Below are positions 1 through 55,070 of a stretch of 64,000 nucleotides of DNA, piece by piece. The notes below the pieces were generated by a model. It saw nothing but the letters and a program-made list of their open reading frames with translations. It was not told the origin of the DNA and searched no databases. Positions within the stretch are counted from its first letter, which is position 1. Each line of letters starts with the position of its first letter. Position numbers and translations under genes: made by a program. Origin of the DNA: Verrucomicrobiota bacterium (GTDB lineage Bacteria > Verrucomicrobiota > Verrucomicrobiia > Limisphaerales > AAA164-E04); the NCBI GenBank assembly GCA_047947115.1, contig CP170459.1:1344001-1408000 (forward strand), given 5' to 3'.

Positions 1-209
1 TTCAATGGATTGAAGAAAGTTTGGGTAAGAAAGCAATTATTGAAAACCAACCCTTCCATAAAGCGGACATGAAATCAACTTGGGCAGACATATCAAAAGC
101 TGAGTCAATGTTAGAGTGGAAGCCTGAGATCGATATTAAAGAAGGCGTTCTCAAATGTGTGGAATGGTACCAGCAAAACCATTCCTGGCTCAAAGATATC
201 AAACTGTAG
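1..209 (+). CDS. NAD-dependent epimerase/dehydratase, C-terminal part (runs off left edge)
   Basis: Frame open from window start; ..LGKKAII..ADMKSTWADISKAESMLEWKP..EGV..VEWY is the typical extended-SDR C-terminus. Confidence 0.8.
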   Translation, partial: QWIEESLGKKAIIENQPFHKADMKSTWADISKAESMLEWKPEIDIKEGVLKCVEWYQQNHSWLKDIKL

Positions 210-600
210 GTAGCCCAATATCTCAGATTCACATTCGCAGGTAGATCAGAAAAGTGTATCCCGTTGACCGCGGAATCCCTGATCCTCTGTGAAAGGTAGA
301 GCGTGACGTCCCTGTCGCGCTGGATAGATCTCCCGATAAATCGGGACTGATCCGCAATGCACCGGTAGGGATAGGCTGCTGCCTGTCCGTCGAATGCCAA
401 GCATATCCAAATTTTCAATAACCGTTCAAATACCAGAAAACATACAACACCTTTTAAGTGTGACACCTTTTGTTTTTCTTTGTAATTACGGCTGGAATTA
501 CAAAGAAAAACAAAAAACATCCTTTTTAACTCTGCAACCTCCCAACCTCTAGTGACCGCAGCTATGCTGAAAGTCCCGTGGCTGCGGGAGGTGGTGAAGA
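210..600 (+). repeat. Modular repeat unit U0 (REP cluster, hairpin E, right end)
   Basis: GGTAG hairpin modules, CTTTTAAGTG 451-460, stem 468-515, CTCTAGTGACCGC..GGTGGTGAA. Confidence 0.85.
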
Positions 601-604
601 AAAA

Positions 605-1894
605 ATGCAAAAGACAACTATCGCAATCGTAGGCCTCGGCTATGTAGGTCTTCCACTTGGACTTCAGTTCGCCCGATCCGGTGTGAATGTCATCGGCTTG
701 GATGTAGATAATTCCAAAGTGGATGCACTCAACCAAGGAAGAAGCTATATCAAGCACATCGCTGCTTCCGACATTCAGGAAGCAGTCAATAAAGGATGCT
801 TTTCTGCTTCTACTGACTTTTCTAAAGTAACGGAAGTTGAAGCCGTCCTTATATGTGTGCCGACGCCACTGGACCAACATCGTGAACCTGATATTAGTTA
901 TGTAATCAAGAGCGGAGAAGCCATCGCCCCTTTCTTAAAACCACCAGAAGGGGGAAGGAAGAAACTCATTGTTCTCGAATCGACGACCTATCCAGGAACG
1001 ACAGATACAGACCTTCGAGAAGTGCTTGAGAAAGGATCGGGATTGAAAGCTGGAGAAGATTTTCACCTGGCCTACTCGCCTGAACGAGAAGATCCAGGTC
1101 GCACTGATCATTCGGTAAAAAGCATACCAAAGGTGATGGGAGGATACACCTCCGACTGCCTGGAACGTTGCACGGAACTTTATCTGACTGCCCTTGATAA
1201 AGTGCATCCAGTCAAGTCTTGCCGCATAGCCGAAGCAACGAAATTGACCGAAAACATTTTTCGATCGGTGAACATTGCACTGGTCAACGAACTGAAATTG
1301 GTTTTTCACAAAATGGACATTGATGTGTGGGATGTCGTCGATGCAGCAGCAACCAAACCCTTTGGATACATGCCATTTTATCCAGGACCGGGATTAGGGG
1401 GACACTGCATTCCCATTGATCCATTTTACCTGACATGGAAAGCACGTGAGTACGAACAACACACCCGATTCATCGAATTGGCTGGTGAAATAAACACAGC
1501 CATGCCAGACTATGTGATATCCCGAGTGGCCGATGCTCTGAATGACGAAGGTAAATCCATCAAAGGAAGCCGGATCTTGTTGCTTGGTTTGGCCTACAAA
1601 CCCAATGTGGATGATGATCGTGAAAGCCCCAGTTACCGATTGATTGAAAAACTGGAACACAAAGGAGCCGAAGTTGCATACAACGACCCCCATGTTCCCG
1701 AAATCCGGCCGACCAGAGAATTCCCGCAATACGCAGGTCGAAAGTCGCAAGAAATTTCAGATGACTACGATTTGATCCTCCTGGCAACACACCACAAAGA
1801 ATACAAGGGATTTGATTTCAGCAATTACACGATTCCAATCGTGGACACACGCAATTGCATCACCAAACGACCCGATAAATACTACCAGGCATAG
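605..1894 (+). CDS. UDP-N-acetylhexosamine 6-dehydrogenase (WbpA/WecC-type nucleotide sugar dehydrogenase)
   Basis: GLGYVGLP, ESTTYPGTT, GHCIPIDPFYL; start taken at ATG 605 because upstream codons are repeat DNA. Confidence 0.9.
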   Translation: MQKTTIAIVGLGYVGLPLGLQFARSGVNVIGLDVDNSKVDALNQGRSYIKHIAASDIQEAVNKGCFSASTDFSKVTEVEAVLICVPTPLDQHREPDISYVIKSGEAIAPFLKPPEGGRKKLIVLESTTYPGTTDTDLREVLEKGSGLKAGEDFHLAYSPEREDPGRTDHSVKSIPKVMGGYTSDCLERCTELYLTALDKVHPVKSCRIAEATKLTENIFRSVNIALVNELKLVFHKMDIDVWDVVDAAATKPFGYMPFYPGPGLGGHCIPIDPFYLTWKAREYEQHTRFIELAGEINTAMPDYVISRVADALNDEGKSIKGSRILLLGLAYKPNVDDDRESPSYRLIEKLEHKGAEVAYNDPHVPEIRPTREFPQYAGRKSQEISDDYDLILLATHHKEYKGFDFSNYTIPIVDTRNCITKRPDKYYQA

Positions 1895-2480
1895 GTAGCT
1901 CGTAAAGTTTATCCCGTCGACTGCGGGATCCCTGTCGCGCCAGGTAGATCTCCCGATAAATCGGGACTGGTCCGCCACCATTATTTACCACCCGTTCGGC
2001 TGCGCCTCACTAGAGAACACAGAGGACACGGAGAGAAGAAAGGAAGCAGTGTTATTGTTTTGATCCGTTCATGCGAACAAATCAAAACAATAACACAAAC
2101 CGTCAGCCCCTCGGGCAAGTAAGGTAGTTCGTGACGTCCCCGTCGCGAGAAGTTATCCCATGGGCTGCAGGATTTCTACCTCGTTGCAAGGTAGATCGGA
2201 CCGTCCCTGGTCCGCACAACGTCTACTACATTCTTATTACGAAAACTATAAGGCACACGAATACTTTTAAGTGTGCTACTTTTTGATTTCTTAGGTTTTG
2301 TCCCAAACCTAAGAAATCAAAAAACCTCTGTGGTCCTCTGTGCTCTCAAGTGAGGAATCGAACGGGTGGTGAATAAAACAAAAACTCTGCGCTACCTCAT
2401 ACGAATCTCCCCATCTCAACCCCGCGGCTGCGGGAGGCGGTTAATACATCTGTGAAAATCTGTGACATCTGCGGATAAAA
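1894..2480 (+). repeat. Modular repeat unit U1 (complete)
   Basis: Left end ACCACCCGTTCG..ACTAGAG at 1987, hairpin D 2049-2096, hairpin E 2280-2323, inverted right end 2326-2374. Confidence 0.9.
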
Positions 2481-2595
2481 ACAAACCAGCAAAAGCCCAA
2501 AAGCAATGGAACACGTTCTGTTCGGCATTTCTGGGGCTCAAGATAAAATTGGGAGCTGCATATACGTTTGAAGAGTAATCATTAATTGATCCAGT

Positions 2596-2913
2596 ATGCA
2601 TAATCTTCACATTCTACCTGTTCCACTGCTGAAGGAGCTAAAGGAAGTGGCACATAATTTCGAGTCATCAGGAATTCAATTAATACTTTTCGGATCTTTC
2701 GCGACTGGAAATGCGCGATCTACATCAGATCTGGATCTGGCCTTTGATAGTCGAGCTACCTCGGGGCAAGAGATCCGACAGCTTTACGGCCGTATCGATG
2801 ATTTACACACCATTCGCTCGGTGGATTTAGTAGACCTGCAAAAAGTCGATCCTGGAGTAGCTGAGGAAATAAAAAATAACGGACGGATACTCTCCGAATG
2901 CCTTGCTGATTGA
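2596..2913 (+). CDS. Minimal nucleotidyltransferase (MNT, MntA-like antitoxin), orphan
   Basis: LILFGSFATG..STSDLDLA..VDLVD motif, 105 aa. Confidence 0.85.
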   Translation: MHNLHILPVPLLKELKEVAHNFESSGIQLILFGSFATGNARSTSDLDLAFDSRATSGQEIRQLYGRIDDLHTIRSVDLVDLQKVDPGVAEEIKNNGRILSECLAD

Positions 2914-3380
2914 TTCACCACCCGTTCGATTGCACCTCACTAGAGAACACAGAGGGCACAGAGAGGGCGGGGAGACGTTGTTTTATTTTGGGCTATTCAA
3001 TTGAACAGCCCAAAATAAAACAGCAAACCATCAGTTCCGCGACCGTGGGACAGGCTGAAAGGTAGATCGGATCATCCCTGATCCGCATAGCGCCCAGAGC
3101 ATTCAACACCCCGCTCGTATCATGAAAACAAAAAATGATTCACACCCTTTTAAGTGTGCTACCTTTTTGATTTCTTTGGTTTTTTCCGAAAACCTAAGAA
3201 ATCAAAAAACTCTGTGGCCCTCTGAAACTAGATTGTCCCGTCGACTTCGGGATGAACTCAAGTGCCAATTACTCACTACAGCGCTGAAAGTCCCGCGGCT
3301 GCGGGAGGTGGTTAATAAAAAATCCGCCTTCCAACGACATTAATAAAGATCTGCGATCATCTGCGAAATCTGCGGTTAAA
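2914..3380 (+). repeat. Modular repeat unit U2
   Basis: Left end starts immediately after the stop codon; hairpin D 2977-3024; CTTTTAAGTG 3147-3156 plus hairpin E. Confidence 0.9.
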
Positions 3381-3386
3381 CACATC

Positions 3387-4319
3387 ATGCGTATTCTAGT
3401 AACAGGAGGAGCCGGATTCCTCGGCAGCCACCTCTGCGATCGGCTCATCGAGCAGGGCCACGAAGTCATCTGCCTCGACAACTTTTTCACCGGAGATAAA
3501 CAGAACATCCGACACTTGCTCAGCCACGATCATTTCGAGTTAATCCGCCACGACGTTATTGATCCGTTCAAAGCAGAAGTAGACCAAATCTACAACTTGG
3601 CCTGTCCGGCATCACCGGTTCATTATCAACACAACCCCATTAAAACTATCAAAACATCGGTGATGGGAGCAATAAATGCGTTAGGATTGGCAAAAAGAAC
3701 CGGAGCACGAGTATTGCAAGCCTCTACATCGGAGGTCTACGGCGATCCAGAGGTGCACCCGCAAACCGAGGCATACCGTGGAAACGTCAACCCCATTGGC
3801 CCACGATCTTGTTACGACGAAGGCAAACGAGTCGCTGAAACCTTGTTCTTCGATTACCATCGGCAGAATAAAGTAAACATAAGGGTGATGCGTATCTTCA
3901 ATACCTACGGCCCCAGAATGCATCCGCATGACGGACGAGTTGTATCAAATTTCATTGTGCAGGCATTAAACAATGAGCCCATTACAGTTTATGGAGATGG
4001 ATCACAAACCCGATCCTTTTGTTATATGGATGATTTGCTGGATGGTATGATTCGATTGATGAACCACGATTCGTTAACCGGACCGGTGAACATCGGCAAT
4101 CCGGGCGAATTCACGATTCTGGAACTTGCTCAAAAAGTAATTGAAAAAACAGGCTCAAAATCAGAAATCATCCACAAAGACCTCCCAACCGACGATCCGT
4201 TACAACGTAAACCAGATATAACCTTAGCCAAAAACGAACTCGACTGGGAACCAAAAATCAACCTGGACCAAGGCCTGGACAAAACCATCACCTATTTCAG
4301 GACACTTTTAGATAGGTAG
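3387..4319 (+). CDS. UDP-glucuronic acid decarboxylase (UDP-xylose synthase family)
   Basis: [47 protein letters not shown]. Confidence 0.92.
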
Positions 4320-4843
4320 ATCGGACCGTCCCTGGTCCGCCACCATCTTAATTCACCACCCGTTCGATTCCTCACTAGAGGACACAGAGATCACAGAGAG
4401 AAGAGGTGAGATGATGATTTATTTCAGCCCGCTCTATCGAACAAACTGAAATAAATCATCAAACTGTCAGCCCAGGTAGAACGGATCGTCCCTGATCCGC
4501 TGGTAAGGTAGAGCGTAAAGTTTATCCCGTCGGCTGCGGGATCTCAGTACTGGGGGTAGAGATCCCGACCTGTCGGGACTGCCTGTCCGCAAATTCTGGA
4601 CCGCAATCACAGACGTATTCAACGAATAGAAGTCAAATAAACATACGATCACCTTTTCAGTGCGAATACTTTTGGTTTTCTTTGGAATTGCAGCTAGAAA
4701 TTCCAAAGAAAACCAAAAACCTCCCTTTACTCTCTGTGGTCCTCCCAATCTCTAGTGACCGCAGGACGCTCTCTCTTGAAGGTAAATTGCGCTGAAAGTC
4801 CCGCGACCGCGGGAGGTGGTGAACAAAAAAACTCTGCGTGAGA
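4315..4843 (+). repeat. Modular repeat unit U3
   Basis: REP 4315-4340 supplies the stop codon; left end 4352; hairpin D 4413-4460; CTTTTCAGTG plus hairpin E 4652-4718. Confidence 0.9.
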
Positions 4844-4856
4844 AAACACCTAAAAT

Positions 4857-5108
4857 ATGATACTCCAGTACATTGAGAAAGCGCTTAGCCTGGCTCATTA
4901 TGAGATCATCGATGACGAAGATCCCTATTATGGTGAAGTACCTGGATTGGATGGAGTATTGGCTAGTGGAAAAACACTTGAAGATTGTCGTTACCAATTA
5001 GCCCAAGTGGTGGAGGATTGGATACTATACAGCATCGCCAACAAATTACCCATTAATTCACTCGAAGGGATTACCGTCAAAGTACCCGAAATGGTGGCAA
5101 ATGACTGA
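4857..5108 (+). CDS. hicB: HicB-family antitoxin, orphan
   Basis: YYGEVPGLDGVLASGKTLEDCRYQL..EDWI..LP pattern. Confidence 0.8.
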   Translation: MILQYIEKALSLAHYEIIDDEDPYYGEVPGLDGVLASGKTLEDCRYQLAQVVEDWILYSIANKLPINSLEGITVKVPEMVAND

Positions 5109-5112
5109 TGGG

Positions 5113-5290
5113 ACGTTTAAATCCGTCGAATAACCATCAGTAAACGAACCCTTTTAAGTGTGCCCCCATTTGCTTTTGTTTGGAGTTTTCGAATGAGAAT
5201 CCCAAACAAAAGCAAAAATCTCCCAGTCTCAAAAAAAACTCTCACGAATCTCCCAATTTCAAGAGACCGCAGGGAACGGGTGGTGAACAA
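5113..5290 (+). repeat. Modular repeat unit U4 (right half)
   Basis: CTTTTAAGTG plus hairpin E 5151-5217; GACCGCAGGGAACGGGTGGTGAA. Confidence 0.85.
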
Positions 5291-5334
5291 AAACTGTCTC
5301 CAGACCACATCCTAAAGTGTTGCATGTAGTATAG

Positions 5335-5676
5335 ATGGAATTCATCGAAACACCCCATTTCACTAATCTGATTACCCAATACGTTCCTGATGAACACTAC
5401 CGTGCGCTACAACTCGAATTGCAAGCCAACCCTGAAAAGGGGGATCTCATTTCCGGCTCCGGTGGACTTCGGAAGATTAGGGTCGGTTTACCTGGAAGTG
5501 GGAAGCGTGGATCGGCCCGGGTGATTTATCTGTATCTCAAGATTGAAAATCTCATCTACTTTTTGTTGATCTATCGTAAATCCAAATCCGAAAACCTCAC
5601 CCGATCCCAGGTAAGCGAACTACGAGCGCTTGCCGATCAAATCAAGCAGGCCTATCGCCATGAAAGCAGAAAATAA
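5335..5676 (+). CDS. RelE/HigB-family toxin
   Basis: FIETPHF..NPEKGDLISGSGGLRKIR..GKRGSARVIY. Confidence 0.88.
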   Translation: MEFIETPHFTNLITQYVPDEHYRALQLELQANPEKGDLISGSGGLRKIRVGLPGSGKRGSARVIYLYLKIENLIYFLLIYRKSKSENLTRSQVSELRALADQIKQAYRHESRK

Positions 5677-5983
5677 AAGAGAATTACCGGAATTCAGTTT
5701 TAAGGACTTAAAACATAGCCTGGGGCAAGCATTGAGAGAGGCGAAAGATAATGGCACGTGCCGAAAGATTAAATTACCGGAACCAATCGTTGAAATCCCG
5801 CCGAAGGAGATAAGAAGAATACGCACTCAGCTTCAAGTAAGCCAATCCGTATTTGCCGCGATGCTGAATGTTCCATTGAAAACGGCCGTTAGCTGGGAAA
5901 CCGGACTACACAAGCCAACCAGAGCGGCATTACGTCTATTAGACATTGCACGGAAGCATCCAGATATTCTTTTTGAAGCTTAA
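5660..5983 (+). CDS. HTH antitoxin (HigA-like)
   Basis: IRRIRTQLQVSQSVFAAMLNV..SWETG..P..AALRLL; overlaps the toxin stop. Confidence 0.85.
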   Translation: MKAENKRELPEFSFKDLKHSLGQALREAKDNGTCRKIKLPEPIVEIPPKEIRRIRTQLQVSQSVFAAMLNVPLKTAVSWETGLHKPTRAALRLLDIARKHPDILFEA

Positions 5984-6606
5984 TTTACCACCCGCTTGGA
6001 TGTGTAAGGTAGATCGGGCCATCTCTGGTCTGCCACAATAGGTAGCCCACAATGGTAGGGATGAGTTGCTGCTCGTCCGTTCATCCGCCACCAATTATAT
6101 TCACCACCCGTCTTGCTGCGCGCGACTAGAGAACACAGAGGGCACTGAGAGAAAAGAGAAGGAAAGGGAAGGGAGGAGTTGATGTTTTTATTTCGCCCTG
6201 TTCTGTCGAACAAACCGAAATAAAACCACAAACTGTCAGCCCTGCGGGCGGCATGGTAGTCCGCGACGTCCCTGTCGTGAAGGTAGCTCTCCCGATACAT
6301 CGGGACTGGTCCGCCGTGACAGGTAGAGCGTATAGTTTATCCCGTCGACTGCGGGATCCCTGTCGTGCGGTCATTAACGCCAATCGTATCCAACAACGTT
6401 TAAATCCGTAGAATAACCATCAGTAAACGAACCCTTTTAAGTGTGCCATCTTAAGTTTTTCTTTGTTGTTTTCATCCGAAAAGACCAAAGAAAAACTTAA
6501 ACCTCTCAAGACTTAAACATCCTCTCTCGAATCTCTGTGTCCTCAATCCCGCGACTGCGGGAGGGTGGTGTAAATTAAATTCTACGTCCCTGCGACTCCG
6601 CGTGAG
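5984..6606 (+). repeat. Modular repeat unit U5
   Basis: Left end 6100; hairpin D centred 6199-6212; REP cluster; hairpin E 6434-6500. Confidence 0.9.
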
Positions 6607-6623
6607 CAAAAAACAAGCAAGCC

Positions 6624-7151
6624 ATGGACTTCAAACAAGTCGACGCACTAGCCAGCCAAGAACCCCCACTATCCTATCTGGTTATTGGTGGCTATGCAGT
6701 CGCCGCCCATGGATATTCAAGGTTAACCTTTGACATAGATATTTTAATTCGTCGAGTTGATAAAGAAGTTTGGCATGAACGATGTTTAAACATGGGATTG
6801 CGATGTATTGGCCAGTCAAACTCATTTTCTCAATATGATGGCACAGACAAAAGATTGGACCTGATGTTTGTTGATGATCAATCATTCAATAAAATGAATG
6901 CTGATTGCATCACACAAGACTACGATCAGATCCATACCAAGGTAGTAGGATTGGATCATCTAATTGCATTGAAGTTGCACGCGTTGAAAAACGCACCAGA
7001 GCACCGTGTATCAAAAGATTTCAACGACATAGAAATGTTGGCGAAAAATCACAGATTGCAGTTAAAAAGCGAGCATTACAGAGGATTTTTTCTTAAATAC
7101 GGCACCGACAAGATATACGAAACACTGCTGAGATGCCTTAAATATGATTAA
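6624..7151 (+). CDS. Nucleotidyltransferase-family protein (TA-associated type)
   Basis: YLVIGGYAVAAHGYSRLTFDIDIL..LIALKLHA..R..KD..DI. Confidence 0.8.
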   Translation: MDFKQVDALASQEPPLSYLVIGGYAVAAHGYSRLTFDIDILIRRVDKEVWHERCLNMGLRCIGQSNSFSQYDGTDKRLDLMFVDDQSFNKMNADCITQDYDQIHTKVVGLDHLIALKLHALKNAPEHRVSKDFNDIEMLAKNHRLQLKSEHYRGFFLKYGTDKIYETLLRCLKYD

Positions 7152-7341
7152 ACCTGTTCAAGAACATGCAGATTTGGAACTACCAACGGATTCACCGCCG
7201 GTTCAAGTTCCGCCTCAAATTTCCCTGGATACAATGCAGCGAAGAATTGAGGAGATTGCGAAGATGTTCCCACAGAACGTTCCCACACCCGAAGAACGAC
7301 TCAGAACCAAAATAGACGTCCTTTTCGAGTTAAAGGAATAG
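7144..7341 (+). CDS. Small hypothetical protein, probable partner of the upstream nucleotidyltransferase
   Basis: 65 aa ORF overlapping the upstream stop and ending at the repeat boundary. Confidence 0.6.
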   Translation: MIKPVQEHADLELPTDSPPVQVPPQISLDTMQRRIEEIAKMFPQNVPTPEERLRTKIDVLFELKE

Positions 7342-7906
7342 GTATACCACAATGGTAGGGATTGCGCTGCCGCGCGTCCGTTCAGCCGCCACCAATTTTA
7401 TTCACCACCCGTCTTGCTGCGCGCGACTAGAGAACACAGAGGGCACAGAGGGCACAGAGAGAAAAGAGAAGGATAGGGAAGGGAGGAGTTGATGCTTTTA
7501 TTTTGGCCTGTTCTGTCGAACAAACCGAAATAAAACCACAAACAATCAGTCCCGCGACTGCGGGACGGGCGGCATGGTAGTCCGCGACGTCCCTGTCGCG
7601 TAGGTAGCTCTCCCGATACATCGGGACTGATCCGCTGGTAAGGTAGAACGGAAAAGTGAATCCCGTCGACTGCGGGATCCCTGATCCGCCACAAGAGGTA
7701 GGCCACAATGGTAGGTAGATCGGACCGTCCCTGGTCCGCATTAACCCAGACGCATTCGACAAACGTAATCAGTGAACAAACACCAATAAATCTCCTTTAA
7801 CTCTCTGTGGCCCTCCCCACTTCTAGTGACCGCAGCTATGCTGAAAGTCCCGTGACTGCGGGAGGTGGTTTAAATTAGACTTTGTGGTCCTTGTGACTTT
7901 GTGTGA
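7341..7906 (+). repeat. Modular repeat unit U6 (hairpin E absent)
   Basis: Near copy of the U5 left half; left end 7401; hairpin D centred 7509-7522. Confidence 0.9.
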
Positions 7907-7918
7907 GCGCTAAAACAA

Positions 7919-8146
7919 ATGAAAAAAACACTGACCGCCATTATTCGAGCAGAAGATGATGTTTATGTAGCGCTTAACCCCGAACTGGACATAGCCAGTC
8001 AAGGTGCTACGACCCAACATGCGCTGAGTAATTTGCAAGAAGCTGTTGATTTGTTCCTGGAAACAGCATCAAAGGAGGAAATAGAGGAGCGATTAAGAGG
8101 TGAATCCTTGGTAACACAATTTGTGGCTGAGTATGCCCCCGCTTAA
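7919..8146 (+). CDS. hicB: HicB-family antitoxin, orphan
   Basis: LTAII..EDDVYVALNPELDIASQG.T...AL.NLQEAVDLFLE. Confidence 0.85.
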   Translation: MKKTLTAIIRAEDDVYVALNPELDIASQGATTQHALSNLQEAVDLFLETASKEEIEERLRGESLVTQFVAEYAPA

Positions 8147-8147
8147 G

Positions 8148-8511
8148 AAGTTTATCCCGCCGACTGCGGGATCCCAGTCGCGGCGGTAGGGATAGGCTGC
8201 TGCCTGTCCGCAAAGGTAGATCGGACCGTCCCTGGTCCGCATTAACCCAGACGCATTCGACAAACGTAATCAGTGAACAAACACCAATAAACATTACGTG
8301 ACCTTTTAAGTGGCGCCCCTTTACGTTTTCTTTGACGATTGAACCACAATCTTCAAAGAAAACGTAAAACCCTTAAAGTTCATTACTTACAACTACTCAC
8401 TCAAACCTCTGTGGCCTTCCCTGTCTCTAGTGACCGCAGCTATGCTGAAAGTCCAGTGACTGCGTGAGGTGGCGAACAAAAAATACTGCGTCCCTGCGAC
8501 TCTGCGTGAGA
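8148..8511 (+). repeat. Modular repeat unit U7 (right half)
   Basis: REP cluster, CTTTTAAGTG plus hairpin E 8302-8369, right end. Confidence 0.85.
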
Positions 8512-8796
8512 ATTACACCAAAAGAACAATCAATCATCCGTGAATCGATCCTGGCATTGGACCCAGAATCCTCGATCTACCTATTTGGGTCACGAGTGGA
8601 TGATCACGCGAAAGGTGGTGACATAGATCTATTGGTGATATCCGACAAACTTGAATTCCGAGATCTCTTAAAACTGAGACGGCTTATACTGGACCAGATA
8701 GGTTGGCAGCAATTGGATCTCATCATCAAAAAGTCCACTGAACTGAGTCAACCATTCGTAGAAGAAGCCATCGAAACAGGGATCTTGCTTACGTGA
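8506..8796 (+). CDS. Minimal nucleotidyltransferase (MNT antitoxin)
   Basis: IYLFGSRVDD..KGGDIDLLV; probable GTG start at 8506 inside repeat module CTCTGCGTGAG. Confidence 0.85.
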   Translation: MRITPKEQSIIRESILALDPESSIYLFGSRVDDHAKGGDIDLLVISDKLEFRDLLKLRRLILDQIGWQQLDLIIKKSTELSQPFVEEAIETGILLT

Positions 8797-8806
8797 CGCA
8801 TTAAAC

Positions 8807-9153
8807 TCACCACCCGTTCGATACCTCACTAGAGAACACAGAGGACACAGAGAGAAGAGGAGGTGTTTGAAGGTTTATTTTGTAACATTCTATCGAATAT
8901 CCCAAAATAAACCAACAAACTGTCAGTCCAGGTAGATCGGACCGTCTCTGGTCCGTCATAACCTCAAACGCACTCAACAACGCTGATCACTGACGAAGCC
9001 TTTTAAGTGTGCACCCTTTTTGAGTTCTTTGGCGTTCTGAATTAGAACTACAAAGAACTCAAAAATCTCTGTGATCCTCTAGAGACCGCAGGAAACGGGT
9101 GGTAAAACAAAAAATCTGCGACCATCTGCGTAAATCTGCGGATAAATAACAAA
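8807..9153 (+). repeat. Modular repeat unit U8 (compact, complete)
   Basis: Left end, hairpin D 8872-8913, one REP at 8931, hairpin E 8999-9065, right end. Confidence 0.9.
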
Positions 9154-9154
9154 C

Positions 9155-9607
9155 GTGAACGATCGTCCGAAAGCACTACTTCAAGCTAACCTCGATGATC
9201 TACTACGGGCCAAAAAACATTTGGATTACTCGTATAGGCAGATAATTAGCTACGATGCGGAATTCGAGGAGTATAATGAAGAACAATTGGAAACCGTGGA
9301 GGCCTTCACAAGTCGGTTTGCACGTTGTGCGGATTTACTGGTGAACAAGGTTCTGAGATCGTTGGATCGTTATGAACTGAAACCGGGAGGGACATTATTA
9401 GATGTGATCAATAGGGCAGAGAAGCGTGGGATTATCTCAAATGTCGGGGAGTTAAGAGAAATGAAAGACATTAGGAACATCATCGCACATGATTACGCGG
9501 GAATCCAAATGGAACAGGTGTTTGAATACTGCAAACAAAAGAAACCACATTTTGACGAAATTTGCCACAACCTGAAGAATTACGTGGATCGTTTGCAGAT
9601 AATTTAA
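9155..9607 (+). CDS. HEPN-domain toxin
   Basis: RNIIAHDY (R-X4-H) motif; RFAR..D; GTLLDVINRAEKRG. Confidence 0.85.
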   Translation: MNDRPKALLQANLDDLLRAKKHLDYSYRQIISYDAEFEEYNEEQLETVEAFTSRFARCADLLVNKVLRSLDRYELKPGGTLLDVINRAEKRGIISNVGELREMKDIRNIIAHDYAGIQMEQVFEYCKQKKPHFDEICHNLKNYVDRLQII

Positions 9608-9628
9608 ATCGAATCATTAATGAATTAA

Positions 9629-10218
9629 TTCACCACCCGGCTCGCTGCGCGCGACTTGAGAGCACAGAGGACACAGAGAGAGAAGGAGGGGATGATGTTT
9701 TATTTCAGCCCGTTCTATCGAACGAACTGAAATAAATCATCAAACTGTCAGCCCAGGTAGATCGGACCGTCCCTGGTCCGCCGGTAAGGTATTTGGAAAA
9801 ACACTATCCCGTCGACTGCGGGATCCCTGGCGCGTAATGGTAGCTCGGATCGTCCCTGATCCGTAAATCCCCAATCGCTGCCAACAACGCTTACAACATA
9901 GAACAAGCAGCCAAATTACGATCTCCTTTTCAGTGCGAATACTTTTGTTTTTCTTTGTTATGACGGCCAGTAATGCCAAAGAAAAACAAAACCTCTCGAT
10001 ACTCTCTGTGGCCCTCCCAATCTCTAGTGACCGCAGCAATGCTGAAAGTCCCGTGACTGCGGGAGGTGGTAAAACAAAAGTCTGCGACCATCTGCGTAAA
10101 TCTGCGGATAAATAACAAAAGCAAAAACTTCTTATAAACACTCTATGCCCCTCCTTTCCTCTAGTGACCGTAGGGAACGGGTGGTTGAACAACAAAAACT
10201 CTGCATCTCCGCGTGAGA
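9629..10218 (+). repeat. Modular repeat unit U9
   Basis: Left end, hairpin D 9694-9741, hairpin E 9925-9991, two right-end copies. Confidence 0.9.
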
Positions 10219-10229
10219 AAAGACGAAAA

Positions 10230-10442
10230 ATGAAAGAAATTATATTTGAGGTATTGGAACAACCTATGGGACAGGGGTTTGTTGCTACAGCAGTTGGGAT
10301 AGGTGTTCACACTGAGGCTGACACACTCGAAGATTTACGTCAAAATGTGCGTGAAGCCGTGGATTGCCATTTTGACGATTCAATGGATGCTCCGAAGCTC
10401 ATCCGTCTCCATTTTGTTCGGGATGAGGTATTGGCCAGATGA
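10230..10442 (+). CDS. HicB-like antitoxin
   Basis: MKEIIFEV..GFVATA..HTEADTLEDLRQNVREAVDCHF; ATGA overlap with hicA. Confidence 0.75.
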   Translation: MKEIIFEVLEQPMGQGFVATAVGIGVHTEADTLEDLRQNVREAVDCHFDDSMDAPKLIRLHFVRDEVLAR

Positions 10443-10681
10443 GAACACCACGGGATTTATCTGCGAGTGATTTGGAAAAAGCGTTAAAAGGTCTTGGATA
10501 CGAAAAAACACGAAAGAAGGGATCACACATACGATTAACAACAAATTTAGATGGTGTACATCACGAGACAATTCCGAATCATGATCCGATAAAGATTGGA
10601 ACACTGTCAGCTATTCTGAAGAGCATTGCAAATCACCATCCCATGACGGTAAGTGAATTAATGGAGCAATTAGGCTTATAA
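10439..10681 (+). CDS. hicA: HicA-family toxin
   Basis: LGYEKTRKKGSHIRL..TIPNH..IKIGTLSAIL. Confidence 0.88.
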   Translation: MRTPRDLSASDLEKALKGLGYEKTRKKGSHIRLTTNLDGVHHETIPNHDPIKIGTLSAILKSIANHHPMTVSELMEQLGL

Positions 10682-10734
10682 GCATTCGAATTCTACACTG
10701 CCCATTTAATTGAAATAATCCAAGCAGTTGGACA

Positions 10735-11305
10735 GGCGGCAAGGTAGATCTCCCGATAAATCGGGACTGATCCGCAACGAAAGGTAGATCGTAAAGTTTA
10801 TCCCGTCGACTGCAGGATCCCTGGTCCGCATTAGCTCATATGCATTCGACAAACCCGATCCTTAACGAATACCCAGTAGCATACAATGTGCATACCTTTT
10901 GTTTTTCTTTGTAATTACGACTGGAATTCCAAAGAAAAACAAAAACCTCTCATTACTCTCTGTGCCCTCCTTTTCTCTAGTGACCGCAGGGAACGGGTGG
11001 TGAACAAACCAAAACAATACTACAAACTACCAGCCCTGCGAGCAGCAAGGTAGCCCGCAACGCCTCTGTCGCGCAGGTCATTCGGAAAAGTTTACACTAA
11101 TGGGGTCCAACAACGTTCTGCGCGATTAAACGGAAATAAACACACGCACCCCTTTTAATCAGACATTTTTGACTTTCTTAGATGATTTAACCAAAATCCT
11201 CGAAGAAAGTTAAAACCTCTCTCTCTGTGATCCTCCCAATCTCAAGTGAGGAATCGAACGGGTGGTGCAAATTAACCTTTGTGGACCTTGTGACTTTGTG
11301 TGGTA
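10735..11305 (+). repeat. Modular repeat unit U10 (two partial right halves)
   Basis: REPs at 10743 and 10783; hairpin E 10895-10944 and 11151-11215; right end to about 11267. Confidence 0.85.
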
Positions 11306-11370
11306 ATAATTTGTTTCCTACGCTTGACTGAGACAGAACTTAGATAGTAATGTGGTCCGTCTACACGGTT

Positions 11371-11447
11371 GGTGGCCGTAGTTCAGTTGGTAGAGCCCCA
11401 GATTGTGGTTCTGGTTGTCGCGGGTTCGAGTCCCGTCGGTCACCCCA
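11371..11447 (+). tRNA. tRNA-His (GTG)
   Basis: G-1, acceptor stem GTGGCCG/CGGTCAC, anticodon GTG 11405-11407, GGTTCGAGTCC T-arm, encoded CCA. Confidence 0.95.
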
Positions 11448-44755: not shown

Positions 44756-45135
44756 CCACGACTGCAGCAGCTGGATTTGGACCGCTAAGAATAGCGGCAG
44801 TGAAGGAATCAGGGTGAGCATCAAAACCGATCACCCGAGAAGTATTTATTGCATCATTGATCATAGTCAGTGAGAGTATGCAGGCAGACTGAAAGCTGGC
44901 AGGCGAATACATGCACTCAGGTATGCGGGGCGGTCCCCATGTAGGTGCTTTTCGCCATCACTCATTCTCAGAAACGGAGATAAAACTCCAAGCGAACTCT
45001 ACGAGTGTATCCAGCACGGCCACCTGCGGTTTAGCCTACCAACAGGTCCTGAGGGTGCCAGTCTTTCAGTCTTACTTGCAACTATTGTTGCTATCCGAGT
45101 GTGCAGGGCGCCCCGATGACAAACAACATACCCTC
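44756..45135 (-). mobile_element. IS110-family remnant: non-coding left end plus about 36 codons of recombinase (ATG 44864)
   Basis: MINDAINTSRVIGFDAHPDSFTAAIL resembles the IS110 N-terminal (I/V)GxDxH motif; truncated by IS21. Confidence 0.6.
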
Positions 45136-45470
45136 ACAGAGAGGAAGCAGGGGAGTTGATGGTTTATTTTGAACAGTTCTGTCGAACCGCTCAAAATAAA
45201 CTATCAAACTATCAGTCCCGCAGGGGCAATGCTGCTTCTTAGCGATTACGTTCGCCCTTACTGAGGGTTTAATCGAATGCGTATGTTTTGCTCTCCGTAA
45301 ATTCAGTTAACTTTCGAAACATTTTCAGTGGGGGGGCTTTTGATTTCTTTGCTATTTCACGGAAATCGTAAAGAAATCAAAAACTCCTTTCTCCTCTGTG
45401 GCCCTCTGTGCTCTCAAGTGAGGGACCGAACGGGTGGTGGAAAAACGTATCAGTGACGATCCGTTCTACC
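45134..45470 (+). repeat. Modular repeat unit U11 (left end replaced by the IS110 remnant)
   Basis: TCACAGAGAG, hairpin D 45157-45206, hairpin E to 45383, right end to 45440. Confidence 0.88.
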
Positions 45471-47569: not shown

Positions 47570-47581
47570 GAGGTTTGCTTA

Positions 47582-48236
47582 TTCACCACCCGTCCCGCAT
47601 TCGCGGGACTAGAGGACACAGAGGTTCGAGAGAGGTTAAAGAAGTAAGTTAGGGCAAGAGTTGATGGTTTTATTACGGGATGTTCAACAGAACATCCCGT
47701 AATAAAACCACAAGCTACCAATCCTGCGGAGAGTAGGTCCTTATAGGAGTATGCTGTGGTAAATGCGGGAGGCATTGTTATTGTTTGGTTGAGCATGTGC
47801 CGTGTTTGTTTTGGTGATCTGTTTCCGAGTATCATCTTGGTCGTGATTGAAATGTCAATCTTCTGTGGATGTGAGTTTATTAACCACCCGTCTTGCTGCG
47901 CGCGACTTGAGGACACAGAGATGGAGGAGAGGAGTTGAAGAATCATTTCAGCGCGTTCTCCAAACGAACTGAAATGATTCTTCAAACCATCGGCCTTGCA
48001 GGCGGCAATAATGATTCACAACCGGTATGATAATTTTATGTGAAAGAAATGTCTTGAAGACTCCCAATGCCCTCTGAAACGAGTGTAACCCCATCAGCAA
48101 TCGAATTCTTTTAAGTGTGATACTTTTTGGTTTACTTTGTTATGACGATCATGAATAGCCAAGAAAACCAAAAGCCTTTTCTTAAATCTCTTTGGCCCTC
48201 TGTGTTCTCAAGTGAGGGACCGAACGGGTGGTGAAA
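47582..48236 (+). repeat. Modular repeat unit U12 (two left halves plus a right half)
   Basis: Left ends 47582 and 47883; hairpin D 47666-47709 and 47935-47985; hairpin E 48108-48175. Confidence 0.9.
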
Positions 48237-48336
48237 AATGAACGAGCACGCCGTCTCCACGAGTCTGACGTGATGTAAATGGTCTGAAACGAGTCTTGAG
48301 GCATGTCGGCCTTCTGGCATAGCATCTTGAGTGACA

Positions 48337-50475
48337 ATGTTACAAATTCTGCAGAACATAAAGACTGGTGAAACGATGTTGGCCGAGGTGCCTGCGCCTA
48401 TGGTGCGGTCGGGGTCTCTTTTGATCGCCACGCATTCCAGTCTTGTTTCTGCTGGGACGGAGCGGATGTTGGTGGATTTCGGTAAGTCGGGGTGGATTCA
48501 GAAGGCTCGGAGTCAACCCGATAAGGTCCGGGCGGTGATTGATAAGATCAAGGTAGATGGGCTGAAGCCGACTCTTCAAGCGGTTCAGTCCAAGTTGGAT
48601 CAACCTTTACCAATGGGGTATTGTAATGTCGGATCTGTCCTTGAGGTGGGGAATGGTGTTCCACCGGCCGAGTTTGCTGTGGGGGATCGGGTGGTTTCGA
48701 ATGGGCATCATGCGGAGATGGTTTGTGTTCCCAAAAACCTCTGTTGCAAGGTGCCTGATGGTGTCAGTGATGAAGAGGCCGCTTTTACGGTTGTTGGGGC
48801 GATCGGATTGCAGGGCATTCGATTGTTGCAGCCCACTTTGGGGGAGTCGGTGGTTGTCACTGGATTGGGATTGATCGGATTGCTTTGTGTTCAGATGCTG
48901 CGCGCCAATGGGTGTCGGGTGCTTGGAATTGATTTTGATTCTTCAAAGTGTGCCTTGGCGCAGGCTTTTGGAGCTGAAACGGTGGATTTGTCAAAGGGGG
49001 AAGATCCTGTGTCCAAAGCAATGACCTGGACTCGGGGGAGAGGGGTGGATGGAGTTTTGATCACCGCTTCCACAAAAAGTAATGATCCGGTGCATCAGGC
49101 CGCTTTGATGTCCCGTAAACGTGGGCGGATCATTTTGGTCGGAGTGGTTGGATTGGAGCTTTCCCGTGCTGATTTTTATGAGAAGGAACTGAGTTTTCAG
49201 GTAAGTTGCAGTTACGGCCCTGGTCGATATGACGCTCAGTATGAAGAACAAGGGATTGATTACCCTCTGCCCTTTGTTCGTTGGACCGAGCAGCGGAATT
49301 TTGAAGCGTTTCTGGATTTGCTGACTCAAAAGGCTTTGGATCTATCCCCGTTGATCACGCATCGTTTTGAACTGAAGGATGCCTTAAGGGCGTATGAAAC
49401 TGTGGGCAACAAAGAGGGAATTGGTATTGTCATTCAGTACCCTGGAGACAACCGCAAATTGGCGTCCACCAGTCTTGCTCGGTCAATTGACCTGAAAACC
49501 GAGAAGCGTTCGTCCGTTGGCAAGGTTGGTTGTAGTGTCATTGGGGCTGGCAATTTCACGCGCCAAACGTTGTTGCCTGCCTTGGCGCAAACTTCAGCAA
49601 GGCTCCGGACTATTGTTTCAAGCGGAGGGGTGACCGCATCGGATTTGGGTCGTAAATTTAAATTCGAACGCGCCGCCACGGATACCAAGGAAGTGTTCAA
49701 GGATGACGCCACGAACTTGCTGGTCGTCACCACCCGTCATAATACTCACGCGTGTTTTGTGAAGGATGCCATTCAGCTCAACAAGGCTGTATTTGTCGAA
49801 AAACCGTTGTGTTTGAAACGCTCCGAGCTTGAATCAATTGTGGGAGATTACCAAGCGGCAAAAAGTCCCTTCGTCATGGTGGGGTTCAATCGACGCTTCG
49901 CTTCGCTCATCACGTCCATGGCATTACTGATTCAGGCCAGGAGTGAGCCAAAGTCGTTTATTTATACCGTGAACGCCGGGTGCATTCCTCCCGATCATTG
50001 GACACAAGATCCGGAGGTTGGTGGAGGCAGGTTGTTGGGTGAGGGATGCCACTTTATTGATTTGTTAAGATTTTTGGCGGGTAGCAGCATTGGTTCTGCC
50101 AAAGTGTCTTACACCACACCAAATGGGCTGGATACGCAGGATACTTTTTCCATTCAGATATCTTTCGCGGATGGAAGTATTGGAACTGTTCACTACTTTG
50201 CAAATGGATCCAAAAGTTTCCCAAAGGAACGTCTGGAGGTGTTTTGCGGAGGGGGCGTGCTGCAGTTGGATAATTTCCGGACACTGCAGGGGTTTGGTTG
50301 GAAGGGGTTCTCCAAGCAGAAATCTGGAGGTCAGGACAAGGGGCACAACGCTGAATTGAAGGCAGTGGTGGATGCCCTGGAGCAGGGTAAGCAGGCTCCC
50401 ATACCGTTCGATGAGATTGTGGAGGTGACGGATGTTTCCTTGGCGTTGGTGGAGGTAGGGGAATACTTTAGGTAG
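48337..50475 (+). CDS. Bi-domain oxidoreductase (Zn-ADH plus Gfo/Idh/MocA) of polysaccharide loci
   Basis: SAGTE, GLGLIG, SCSYGPGRYD, IGAGNF, VEKP, GFNRRF, GEGCHFID. Confidence 0.9.
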   Translation: MLQILQNIKTGETMLAEVPAPMVRSGSLLIATHSSLVSAGTERMLVDFGKSGWIQKARSQPDKVRAVIDKIKVDGLKPTLQAVQSKLDQPLPMGYCNVGSVLEVGNGVPPAEFAVGDRVVSNGHHAEMVCVPKNLCCKVPDGVSDEEAAFTVVGAIGLQGIRLLQPTLGESVVVTGLGLIGLLCVQMLRANGCRVLGIDFDSSKCALAQAFGAETVDLSKGEDPVSKAMTWTRGRGVDGVLITASTKSNDPVHQAALMSRKRGRIILVGVVGLELSRADFYEKELSFQVSCSYGPGRYDAQYEEQGIDYPLPFVRWTEQRNFEAFLDLLTQKALDLSPLITHRFELKDALRAYETVGNKEGIGIVIQYPGDNRKLASTSLARSIDLKTEKRSSVGKVGCSVIGAGNFTRQTLLPALAQTSARLRTIVSSGGVTASDLGRKFKFERAATDTKEVFKDDATNLLVVTTRHNTHACFVKDAIQLNKAVFVEKPLCLKRSELESIVGDYQAAKSPFVMVGFNRRFASLITSMALLIQARSEPKSFIYTVNAGCIPPDHWTQDPEVGGGRLLGEGCHFIDLLRFLAGSSIGSAKVSYTTPNGLDTQDTFSIQISFADGSIGTVHYFANGSKSFPKERLEVFCGGGVLQLDNFRTLQGFGWKGFSKQKSGGQDKGHNAELKAVVDALEQGKQAPIPFDEIVEVTDVSLALVEVGEYFR

Positions 50476-50665
50476 TTTGGATCGCCCCTGATACATGTTT
50501 CACCACCCGTCTTGCTGCGCGCGACTAGAGGACACAGAGATCACAGAGTTTTTTGGGGGGAGGGGAGTTGAGGTTTTATTTTGGGATGTTCGATCGAACA
50601 TCCCAAAATAAAACCTCAAAGTCTCAGCCCTGCGGGCAAGGTAGCTCCGATAGTCTCTGATCGGA
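50471..50665 (+). repeat. Modular repeat unit U13 (left half)
   Basis: Left end 50499; perfect 52-bp palindrome 50568-50619. Confidence 0.9.
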
Positions 50666-50737
50666 AGGTCTCCAATAGCCTAGTGTTTTCTTGAAACAAA
50701 TGGAGGGTGTTCTAGCCTGACTTGGTAAGCTCATTTT

Positions 50738-51007
50738 ATGAAACACAGTCACATGACCAAGAAGAAACATTCGGGGCATGCAGAAAAAGAGAAGACCTAC
50801 GAGACGTCTTTTCGCAGCCATCACGATGTATTATTTGCCAAGCCGGAACATGTGGCGGCAAGTATGCCAACCAAACCATCCAAGCGACTATTGGGGGTGG
50901 ACGAAGGATTGGTGCATTTCTCTGAGGATTGGGATTCAGCTGAGACCAATCAGGAAATTGCCCGGATGTTTGGATTGGATCACTTGGATGATGCCCATAC
51001 CCTGTGA
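50738..51007 (+). CDS. Probable orphan or degenerate VapB/DUF2281-like antitoxin
   Basis: KRLLGVDEGLVHFSEDWD resembles the R..G...G.....DF motif; start uncertain. Confidence 0.45.
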   Translation: MKHSHMTKKKHSGHAEKEKTYETSFRSHHDVLFAKPEHVAASMPTKPSKRLLGVDEGLVHFSEDWDSAETNQEIARMFGLDHLDDAHTL

Positions 51008-53813: not shown

Positions 53814-53985
53814 ATCCCGCGAGGCGGGACGGGGGCGCCGAGTTTTTTCACCACCCGTTCGATTCCTCACTTGAGGGCACAGAGATCACAGAGAGTGGAG
53901 GGGAGTTGGGGTTATATTTCAGCTCGTTTTGACAAACGAGCTGAAATATAACCCCAAAACTATCAGCCCTGCGGGCGGCAACAAT
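53814..53985 (+). repeat. Modular repeat unit U14 (left half)
   Basis: Left end 53847; hairpin D 53906-53957. Confidence 0.9.
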
Positions 53986-54063
53986 GATTCGTCACGGAAA
54001 TGTTCATCGAGCATGTTCGGGAGTGCGGCGGCTTTTAGATTGGTATCCAATGGAAAGTGATTC

Positions 54064-54369
54064 TTAATCTCGCGCCAGTCGTTTACGCCACTTTTTGGGG
54101 TCTTGTGAGCAATGAAACACTGCGTAAACGACGATTCCGTCTTCTAAAGGTTCGTAAAAAATTTCGAATGGAAAGCGTTGAATTGTAGCGTGGCGAAATT
54201 CATCAATAGCAACCGGAAACAGGTGGGGGTGGTCTTTTATGATGGTAAGGCCCTTTTCCACAGATTGTAGAAAATCCTCGCCAAGTCCCTCCTCCCGACT
54301 CTCATACCAATCAAATGCATCAGAGACGTCCTGCTCAGCTTCTGGAATAAAGATGATCCTGCTAATCAT
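54064..54369 (-). CDS. ParE/RelE-family toxin
   Basis: EAEQDVSDAFDWYE..GLGEDF..RFPF.IFY..AVFH..DP..W. Confidence 0.88.
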   Translation of the reverse strand: MISRIIFIPEAEQDVSDAFDWYESREEGLGEDFLQSVEKGLTIIKDHPHLFPVAIDEFRHATIQRFPFEIFYEPLEDGIVVYAVFHCSQDPKKWRKRLARD

Positions 54370-54583
54370 GTTTATTGCGTATACTCTCTTTGACTTGAGA
54401 CCAGAGTCGTCCTGAAGAGGGTTGGGCAAGGAAACCTTCTTTTCTATTTCTCAACACATCTTGTTTTGCTTCCGAGACAGGCAGCTCGGATTCTTCTCGA
54501 GCGATGCTATCCCATAGATCTTCAACTAGCTGAATCCGTTCTCCTCGAGGGAGCTTTAGAAGATGCTCTAATGTCGTATCCAT
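54362..54583 (-). CDS. Addiction-module antitoxin component
   Basis: LP..ERIQLVEDLWDSI..L..R..W..VK. Confidence 0.85.
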   Translation of the reverse strand: MDTTLEHLLKLPRGERIQLVEDLWDSIAREESELPVSEAKQDVLRNRKEGFLAQPSSGRLWSQVKESIRNKHD

Positions 54584-54681
54584 GCTGAGTAATGTATATC
54601 GAGAACGTTCGGTCTTCAAGATGGACTTTCAATGTCTGCTTTTGAGTTTTTGGACGACATTCAATATCCGAACACCTTTTC

Positions 54682-55070
54682 TTCACCACCCGTCTTGCTG
54701 CGCGCGACTAGAGGGCACAGAGTTCACAGAGAGGTAGAGGGGAGTTGGGGTTATATTTCAGCTCGTTTTGACAAACGAGCTGAAATATAACCCCAAAAAG
54801 ATCAGCCTTGCAGGCGGCGATTACGTCCGCTCTCTTACTGAGTTCTAAATTGAATAGGTATGAACTCCCGTGGTTTTGGCCCACGCAAATCCAGATAACT
54901 TTCGAATCCTTTTAAGTGCAGTAACTTTTTGATTTCTTTGCTATTTCATGGAAATCGTTATGAAATCAAAATTTCCTCCGTGCTCTCTGTGTTCTCAAGT
55001 GAGGAATCGAACGGGTGGTTAACAAAACAGATCCCTCGGTCGACGCGATAAACTTTCCGTTCTACCTATT
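54682..55070 (+). repeat. Modular repeat unit U15
   Basis: Hairpin D 54745-54796 identical to U14; hairpin E 54909-54972; right end to 55020. Confidence 0.9.

Follow-up and report, generated by a model that had tools for sequence, protein, structure and literature searches.

A co-oriented composite element in a surface-polysaccharide locus

We analysed 64,000 nucleotides from the genome of a Verrucomicrobiota bacterium (C1:1344001-1408000, C1 being the single contig of the 6.08-Mb genome, G000). This whole stretch is called the window below. It covers a surface-polysaccharide cluster with nucleotide-sugar enzymes, glycosyltransferases, O-antigen ligases and wecB, and a repeated intergenic element separates the genes in two of its regions, 210-11305 and 45134-55070. 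A preliminary description made from the sequence alone had likened this element to the recombination sites of an integron array. Cumulative GC skew places the origin at about 1.117 Mb and the terminus at about 3.988 Mb, so that the plus strand is the leading strand at the window.

The modules of the element follow one order: a left arm, hairpin D, an AAAC..TCAGCCC stretch, a cluster of GTAG repetitive extragenic palindromes (REPs), an A/C-rich linker, the motif CTTTT(A/C)AGTG (the C box), hairpin E and a right arm, with terminal inverted repeats. Copies with both ends, of which there are 11, measure 303-475 bp. This order was recovered as first described, and each of the 11 gaps that separate genes or gene pairs between the epimerase stop codon (209) and the tRNA gene (11372) contains parts of the element. 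About 16 copies had been counted before; we found 18 full or partial copies in the window, eight of them complete, and two more complete ones just upstream. The first region holds 12 full or partial copies and three stubs, and the second region six copies (Table 1).

All copies read in one direction, as had been proposed. Matches to the D and E profiles in the window locus are all on the plus strand, including those beside the minus-strand waaL and ParE pair. Within contigs, 152 D/E orientations were concordant and none discordant, the profiles being partly trained on the copies scored. GGTAG words were likewise found 40 times on the plus strand and six times on the minus strand of 18 gap regions. 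The D and E profiles gave no match outside the locus in the whole genome, and no known source was found for D, E or the C box. Both hairpins are AT-rich, and whole copies fold (z of -7.2 and -12.4) into a branched stem closed by the arms. The claim that structure is conserved over sequence holds for hairpin D, where changes on both sides of the stem were seen at 15 of 19 pairs (21 copies, three genomes); none of 500 shuffles reached this value and slid controls gave 4-7. For hairpin E, which aligns less well than D, such changes were seen at 11 of 18 pairs.

Such co-oriented hairpins might act on RNA, by processing or stabilising a long polysaccharide mRNA, or the GGTAG words, which we take to resemble ops/JUMPstart antitermination sites, might serve in antitermination. 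Strict co-orientation with most sugar genes and the bias of GGTAG words to the sense strand would fit this. REP arrays around exopolysaccharide (EPS) genes, noted in Thauera, were interpreted as regulatory in the part of that report available to us (PMC3733652). However, 135 distinct D and E hairpins show 46 G.T against 58 A.C oppositions on the sense strand, and the absence of a G.T excess points to symmetry at the DNA level or palindrome repair rather than an RNA fold. Moreover, no Rfam family covers the element: at gathering score the matches in the whole window are limited to parts of a group II intron and the tRNA, and at E<=1 nothing beyond sub-threshold hairpin noise appears in positions 1-11400. 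Finally, one of the REP families (G1, see below) follows the replichore elsewhere in the genome and not the flanking genes. We therefore regard control at the RNA level as improbable.

Features of the window are listed in Table 1. The names given earlier to the cargo genes (MNT, HicB, HigBA, nucleotidyltransferase pair, HEPN, HicBA and ParE pair) hold, both lone HicB-like genes being named mainly from intact hicA partners in relatives.

Table 1. Elements and genes of the two regions of the window that bear the element (C, C box; D and E, hairpins; L-labels, loci in other contigs or genomes).
Feature	Position	Strand
Partial element: GTAG REP cluster, linker, C box, hairpin E, right arm	209..600	+
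UDP-glucose/GDP-mannose dehydrogenase family gene	605..1894	+
REP cluster, complete element (1983-2372), right-arm stub, CAGAT-type outer arm	1894..2475	+
HEPN/HI0074-family gene remnant; about 290 bp present in L097, L109 and L114 are absent at 2522-2529	2463..2578	+
MNT nucleotidyltransferase, orphan antitoxin	2596..2913	+
Complete element and CAGAT outer arm	2913..3380	+
NAD-dependent epimerase/dehydratase, presumably UDP-glucuronate decarboxylase-like	3387..4319	+
Complete element	4315..4850	+
UPF0150/HicB-like antitoxin; hicA lost at a junction into the element linker; pair intact in L082, L090, L115	4857..5108	+
Partial element: linker, C, E, right arm	5110..5286	+
RelE/HigB toxin and HTH antitoxin pair	5335..5983	+
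Left-arm stub, REPs, complete element (6099-6573)	5985..6620	+
AbiEii-like nucleotidyltransferase and 65-aa partner	6624..7341	+
Element without C and E	7341..7915	+
HicB-like gene (DUF7387 match), then hicA stub that joins a REP at a 6-mer common to both; homologous pairs still intact in L082, L085, L108	7919..8150	+
Partial element: REPs, linker, C, E, right arm	8150..8505	+
MntA-like nucleotidyltransferase	8506..8796	+
Complete element and CAGAT outer arm; splits an MNT-HEPN pair that overlaps in L089, L107	8805..9154	+
HepT-like HEPN toxin	9155..9607	+
Complete element, CAGAT outer arm, right-arm stub	9628..10229	+
HicB-HicA pair	10230..10681	+
Two partial elements in tandem and CACAAAG-type outer arm, before a tRNA gene (11372-11444)	10743..11305	+
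Element (left arm truncated) at the 3' end of an O-antigen ligase gene	45134..45445	+
Tandem of a half element (left arm, D) and a complete element	47581..48235	+
Half element with left arm, D and REP, ahead of an antitoxin fragment and wecB	50471..50680	+
Half element with left arm and D; compared with L118, C, E and right arm are absent at a microhomology of 6 bp	53845..53980	+
ParE toxin and addiction-module antitoxin	54064..54619	-
Complete element	54681..55022	+

The middle of the cluster (about 11.4-45 kb) is rich in insertion sequences (IS) and carries no element; dense IS-like repeats and a group II intron with a reverse transcriptase gene (33706-35361) were seen in 11400-45100. At 51617-53090 a minus-strand transposase-like gene splits wecB, which is intact in L118. 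Upstream of the window (C1:1339821-1340620) lies an MNT-HEPN pair without D or E, whose HEPN frame ends early at about -3492.

Heptamer arms, GTAG repeats and their candidate enzymes

What the preliminary description had overlooked is the nature of the ends. They are inverted arms that start with TTCACCAC and carry CACAGAG-type heptamers, like the arms that bracket GxxExxY genes. The sole GxxExxY gene of the genome (C1:3797711) has heptamer arms on both sides, and their first heptamer holds a short hairpin insert, at the same position as in the element. In many phyla this bracketing is common: among 74 GxxExxY loci with enough flank to score (80 were collected), both inverted arms were found in 44 and at least one arm in 59, while control windows gave 1 of 58 per side. 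Of 124 arm matches in the array data set, 123 bear an insert after ACCAC, nearly always of 16-23 nt; no such insert was found within 400 bp at any of the 74 GxxExxY loci from other phyla. The small dispersed repeats of cyanobacteria may be an analogue of these arm inserts.

GxxExxY genes also occur within arrays of this kind. Congeners of the window genome are labelled G002, G004 and G007, with their loci L021, L028 and L026 respectively, and other array loci with L-labels are mostly metagenome contigs. GxxExxY is itself cargo, lying between a right arm and a left arm, in L083, L086, L104 and L021, and in the cut contig L119 a left arm follows it directly; in all, it adjoins elements in 4 of 35 metagenome contigs and in G002. 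The same outward arrangement was seen at 5 of the 74 loci of other phyla. GxxExxY matched in four of four element-bearing genomes of the genus and in one of four others. Its predicted structure is a minimal PD-(D/E)XK nuclease fold (pLDDT 96), and sequence search found no solved structure of it. D67 and E77 are invariant and K79 nearly so in an alignment of 43 sequences, namely L083, L224 and 41 of the 80 loci; two loci interrupted by in-frame stop codons and another seven rows were excluded. In fold searches, the best VIA match was Cas4 SSO0001 (Z 7.9, rmsd 5.0 over 101 residues), and the best Foldseek match was weak (E 0.009). The function of the family (TIGR04256, PDDEXK_3/PF13366) is given as unknown in the accessible part of PMC3424549.

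These data raise the possibility of a dedicated cassette system, in which the GxxExxY nuclease would recognise the heptamer arms and cut at CAC^AGAG, and a gene flanked by a right arm and the left arm that follows would be excised, captured or re-inserted. The constant place of the inserts suggests that the arm has been cut repeatedly; the match with the arms of the genome's own GxxExxY gene, its presence as cargo, its occurrence in the genus and the confidently predicted nuclease fold with D67, E77 and K79 would agree with such a role. On the other hand, crossovers are not concentrated at the arm (see below), the window locus has no GxxExxY gene, the sole copy lies 2.4 Mb away with CGCAGAG-type arms, and the copy in G004 is broken. 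The correlation in the genus comes from eight related genomes, seven of them drafts, and the weak fold matches show no substrate. We consider such a system unlikely; it is likewise doubtful that GxxExxY was domesticated in this lineage together with a polar multi-hairpin site, giving integrase-free gene cassettes that capture and reorder polysaccharide-locus genes.

Further observations concern the arms. In the literature searched, the arm word turned up only within a primer near BF2782, beside an invertible promoter region of the large-capsule locus of Bacteroides fragilis, and this match hints that heptamer arms may sit at a studied capsule switch, as far as the available part of PMC3090145 goes. 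Five GxxExxY loci on five contigs of one Waddliaceae genome (L179, L180, L184, L185 and L194) have identical flanks, which suggests recent spread of a complete arm-bounded cassette. Outside the locus, G000 has 39 matches to CGCAGAT-type heptamer pairs. They frequently form inverted pairs with a spacing of about 120 bp, some carry an insert at CGC^AGAT, and their orientation is unbiased (18 of 39 leading). In L109, L097 and L114, the HEPN1 reading frame begins inside the CAGAT outer arm (window 2463-2520), and arm sequence may thus have supplied the start of a cargo gene.

The middle of the element holds two families of GTAG hairpins, G1 and G4, both also dispersed in the genome (17 and 30 copies outside the locus, respectively). 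The earlier suggestion that GTAG hairpins go with REP-associated tyrosine transposases (RAYTs) was borne out elsewhere in the genome: G1 flanks a RAYT-like gene at C1:1508067-1508501 and G4 another at C1:5390959-5391420, within two REPtron-like loci (C1:1507700-1508800 and 5390700-5391660). Both genes match NF047646 (E 1.6e-17 and 5.2e-16) under its curated cut-off of 80 bits. These short genes escaped a PF01797 search and were located via the REP neighbourhoods; the five PF01797 matches of G000 had neither the element nor G1 or G4 in the flanks viewed. Elsewhere in the genome, 15 of 15 G1 clusters are leading whatever the direction of the neighbouring genes, and 13 of 14 G4 clusters are lagging. 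Two further ideas were rejected. The whole element is not a REPIN, i.e. an inverted REP doublet, since its REPs are tandem, with the strand bias given above, and the linker is not a relic of a G1 REPIN spacer, as 0 of 52 linkers scored.

Gene order, crossovers and the favoured mechanism

A DNA search matched 6 of 41 genomes, clearly only G000, G002, G004 and G007, and a model of hairpin D matched two genomes among 151 of the order and five among 22 of the family, one of the five weakly. A pattern scan gave 40 metagenome loci, 35 of them with D or E; the runs holding window-like sequence come mostly from salt marsh and estuary (word sharing 0.28-0.38). The full element is thus limited to the genus among the searched genomes. 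The design of arms in a polysaccharide locus is wider: another family of the phylum has arms with inserts but different interiors, placed between rml genes and next to MNT-HEPN pairs (L229, L238, L230), and an insert-bearing arm precedes a GxxExxY gene in a TA-rich (toxin-antitoxin) EPS locus of an unrelated organism (L094). In the phylum-wide pattern search, 9 of 300 other genomes gave one or two matches each, near the reversed-pattern control, so only inspected loci were counted.

The cassette content had been proposed for comparison between strains, and it is not invariant. In the three congeners and 35 metagenome contigs the element is present, and both cargo and gene order differ. Next after MNT1 comes uxs (window, L109) or a DegT-like gene (L097, L120); HEPN2 is followed by HicB3 or ugd (L110), the nucleotidyltransferase pair by HicB2 or MNT2, and wecB by ParE, an AAA gene (L118) or GxxExxY (L021); in this comparison the HEPN1 reference is out of frame and was used as a label only. 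The shuffled genes are mostly 90-100% identical to those of the window. Co-orientation has two larger-scale exceptions: in G002 a block of uxs and its right arm is inverted, and with respect to priA the copy of G004 runs opposite to those of G002 and G007. Tandem gene-less copies occur in L086, L087 and L104. A ugd query against five draft genomes of congeners without the element gave no match at E<=1e-40. Four joints that skip parts of the array each recur in two or three of four runs, one of them RNA, which were used as contigs only.

TA genes are dense in the locus, as had been noted, and the enrichment proved independent of the element. All three MNT matches of the genome lie inside the locus, and 27 PIN, four ParE and two of three HicA matches lie elsewhere. 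Of these 33 toxin-family matches elsewhere, 1, 0 and 2 lay within 1.5 kb of the tested dispersed REP and heptamer repeats, which is the chance level. Further TA pairs near typA and priA in G007 (L026:432-11503) and G004 (L028) lack any D or E module, so the region draws TA genes independently of the element. Several of the window's 'cassettes' are orphan antitoxins left after toxin deletion. Toxin loss was repeated: it removed about 290 bp of the HEPN gene in the window, the partners of both lone HicB genes, and 103 bp of hicA3 in L085 and L108. Toxin genes decay via microhomology deletions.

Selfish mini-elements and TA modules might instead have piled up neutrally in an insertion-tolerant hot spot, with a repeat resembling miniature inverted-repeat transposable elements (MITEs) and incidental rearrangements. 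MNT2 and HEPN2 overlap without an element in L089 and L107 (proteins about 65-76% identical) and have a full element between them in the window, where 6 bp are repeated around 8797-9152; four of these are needed by the stop and start codons, and only four are kept in L084 and L110. Nested inserts, half copies and tandem gene-less copies resemble decay, the locus is full of IS-like repeats, and TA genes are common elsewhere in the genome (none of the 27 PIN matches lies in the locus). However, a MITE mobilised in trans should disperse and take both orientations, and D and E do neither; the IS-rich middle of the cluster is free of the element. In addition, D is nearly perfectly paired across three species despite divergence, although template-switch palindrome repair could achieve this without selection. 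A neutral pile-up appears rather unlikely to us.

Where, then, do copies exchange? Among 106 element records, whose pair counts are not independent, pairs identical in one module and different in the next were found at all six module boundaries. When the upstream flank was shared and both flanks were measurable, 9 of 16 pairs differed downstream, and 10 of 20 pairs with a shared upstream flank differed in hairpin E. This spread fits homology-driven exchange and not one site-specific crossover. Substrate for it is at hand: 40 of 153 pairs of gap regions have 25-78 identical bases in common, and two cassette losses map to identical repeats of 78 bp (L096) and 39 bp (L111 and a joint 9153-10141 in runs X1 and X4). 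Of 29 D copies, 24 have their nearest neighbour in the same genome (mean after shuffling 10.6), as do 18 of 26 E copies (11.0).

The integron analogy is not supported as a mechanism here. It would need the integron integrase (IntI) of the lineage, with GGT/ACC cores, to use the termini TTCACC...GGTGAA as giant attC sites of a solitary array. The genome does encode a full-length integrase (TIGR02249, 435 bits against a cut-off of 265) about 600 kb from the locus. Its own attC family, of roughly 124 bp, has ACC/GGT cores. In this variant form the core RYYYACC matches 9 of 14 left termini and GGTRRRY 5 of 18 right termini; left termini often lie close behind a stop codon and the cargo is small and TA-rich. 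However, this terminus is the generic end of GxxExxY arms in many phyla, the canonical core RYYYAAC...GTTRRRY fits none of the 14 left termini and one of the 18 right ones, and none of the eight strong matches of the true attC family is in the locus. The element is also too long against the 57-141 bp of attC sites given in the consulted part of PMC5371416. In 11 copies, 3-9 Watson-Crick pairs adjoin the core on its inner side, a place where the genome's own attC, as read from sequence, is unpaired. The differences in E behind a shared upstream flank mean that the site does not travel whole with the upstream gene. For these reasons the element was rejected as an attC site, and because length and spacer geometry fail we give the reading by IntI very little credence.

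The integron itself lies at C1:739000-742223, with further attC copies at 4321150-4323428 and 5848097-5848168; a second attC cluster without an integrase bears HicA and ParE matches, and a single attC adjoins an integrase fragment. Minimum-free-energy folding of the attC top strand did not yield the recombinogenic form and was not used. The 14 tyrosine-recombinase matches of the genome all lie outside the locus, their flanks having been inspected for the integron only, as do two matches to four-helix-bundle genes, whose flanks were not inspected. Of the recombinase genes earlier proposed for a search beside other copies, RAYT-like genes were found beside dispersed REPs, and no tyrosine recombinase was found in the locus. 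The proposal of a gene-capture and shuffling system with its enzyme encoded elsewhere stands for shuffling, as order differs between strains and congeners, and not for de novo capture by a dedicated enzyme.

The best reading, to which we give about an even chance, is that the copies are homologous recombination anchors that shuffle genes, like Neisseria intergenic mosaic elements (NIMEs). On this view the element is a non-coding composite derived from a gene-less GxxExxY cassette. Each of its inverted CACAGAG arms bears a short hairpin in the first heptamer, and the interior consists of two AT-rich hairpins together with captured GTAG REPs of the RAYT type. Copies lie head to tail along the polysaccharide locus, and a crossover anywhere within two of them would delete, duplicate or swap the intervening gene, including by exchange with DNA of related strains. 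Exchange between direct copies preserves polarity, hence all copies would stay co-oriented. TA pairs landing in the array would be carried as passengers and lose the toxin by microhomology deletion. RecA-type or slippage recombination may be the engine, nicking by GxxExxY or a RAYT a possible trigger, and the host may benefit from the outcome. The anatomy, the origin of the ends and REPs, the confinement, the co-orientation, the variable order and the spread of crossovers are observations.

Several points weigh against recombination anchors. In 16 of 40 pairs with the same downstream flank the right arm differs, i.e. arm inserts were swapped beside the terminus. G4 is leading in the locus and lagging elsewhere, for which we offer no explanation. 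Homologous recombination leaves the first arrival of the element between MNT2 and HEPN2 unaccounted for, as well as the role of D and E. No excised circle was seen in the contigs of the four runs, and an enzyme's role in the shuffling is something we infer from sequence and fold. Several of the skip joints have short sides at 90% likeness, and contigs assembled from short reads of mixed strains can be chimeric where repeats occur; the recurrence of varying order across several assemblies and three further species nevertheless argues that this pattern is real.

Comparison with known systems

Mosaic intergenic repeat arrays are a known kind of structure; the D-REP-C-E composite with GxxExxY arms has, as far as we found, not been described before. 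Neither the element nor the heptamer arms appeared in a full-text literature search, which left subscription journals largely uncovered. If the array works as proposed, an integron-like outcome, a co-oriented and reorderable array of small genes, would have arisen from unrelated parts, nuclease-cassette ends and REP hairpins. The orphan GxxExxY family would gain a candidate substrate and cut position (CAC^AGAG), and two REP families are paired with candidate RAYTs. Surface variation at this locus probably matters for phage escape.

The element shares with GxxExxY heptamer-arm elements an identical terminus and heptamer arms, gene-less copies, and the gene itself in relatives' arrays. It differs from them by fixed-position hairpin inserts in the arms, a polar D-REP-C-E interior and a single co-oriented array. 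MITEs are likewise non-coding with terminal inverted repeats, and the filled and empty site at MNT2-HEPN2 recalls them; unlike them, the element is not dispersed, keeps one orientation and has no convincing target duplication, and no transposase with the same ends was found. The GTAG-plus-hairpin inner modules and the REPtron arrangement resemble REPs, REPINs and bacterial interspersed mosaic elements with RAYTs, judging from the available parts of PMC3733652, PMC6006769 and PMC3116915. In the element, however, the REPs are head-to-tail passengers within a larger unit with unrelated ends, and this unit is not a REP doublet. Integron arrays and clusters of attC sites lacking integrases (CALINs) also have co-oriented structured sites between small, TA-rich, reshuffled genes (PMC5371416, same part), whereas the element is 3-4 times too long, lacks the unpaired core spacer, has dispersed crossovers and shuffles core sugar genes too.

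NIME arrays (dRS3/NTS, SsnA) are alike in being mosaic intergenic repeats beside surface-structure genes, dynamic between strains and proposed to promote exchange of flanking genes, as described in the accessible parts of PMC1797815 and PMC11893778. The NTS-Ssn system also has a cognate small nuclease flanked by its own repeat (PMC11893778, same part). The sequences differ, with no SRM match in -2400..11400 against 21 in the genome. No Ssn-related motif was found in the array, and a GIY-YIG gene of the G002 locus has only weak homologues in G000. SsnA is a GIY-YIG nuclease, whereas the candidate nuclease of the element is PD-(D/E)XK. In contrast to NIMEs, the element sits at one locus and not genome-wide, forms one fixed polar unit between nearly every gene, and whole genes are reordered. 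NIME arrays were described as seemingly specific to Neisseria and proposed to drive exchange of flanking genes (PMC1797815, same part); the array reported here would be their functional analogue in a distant environmental lineage.

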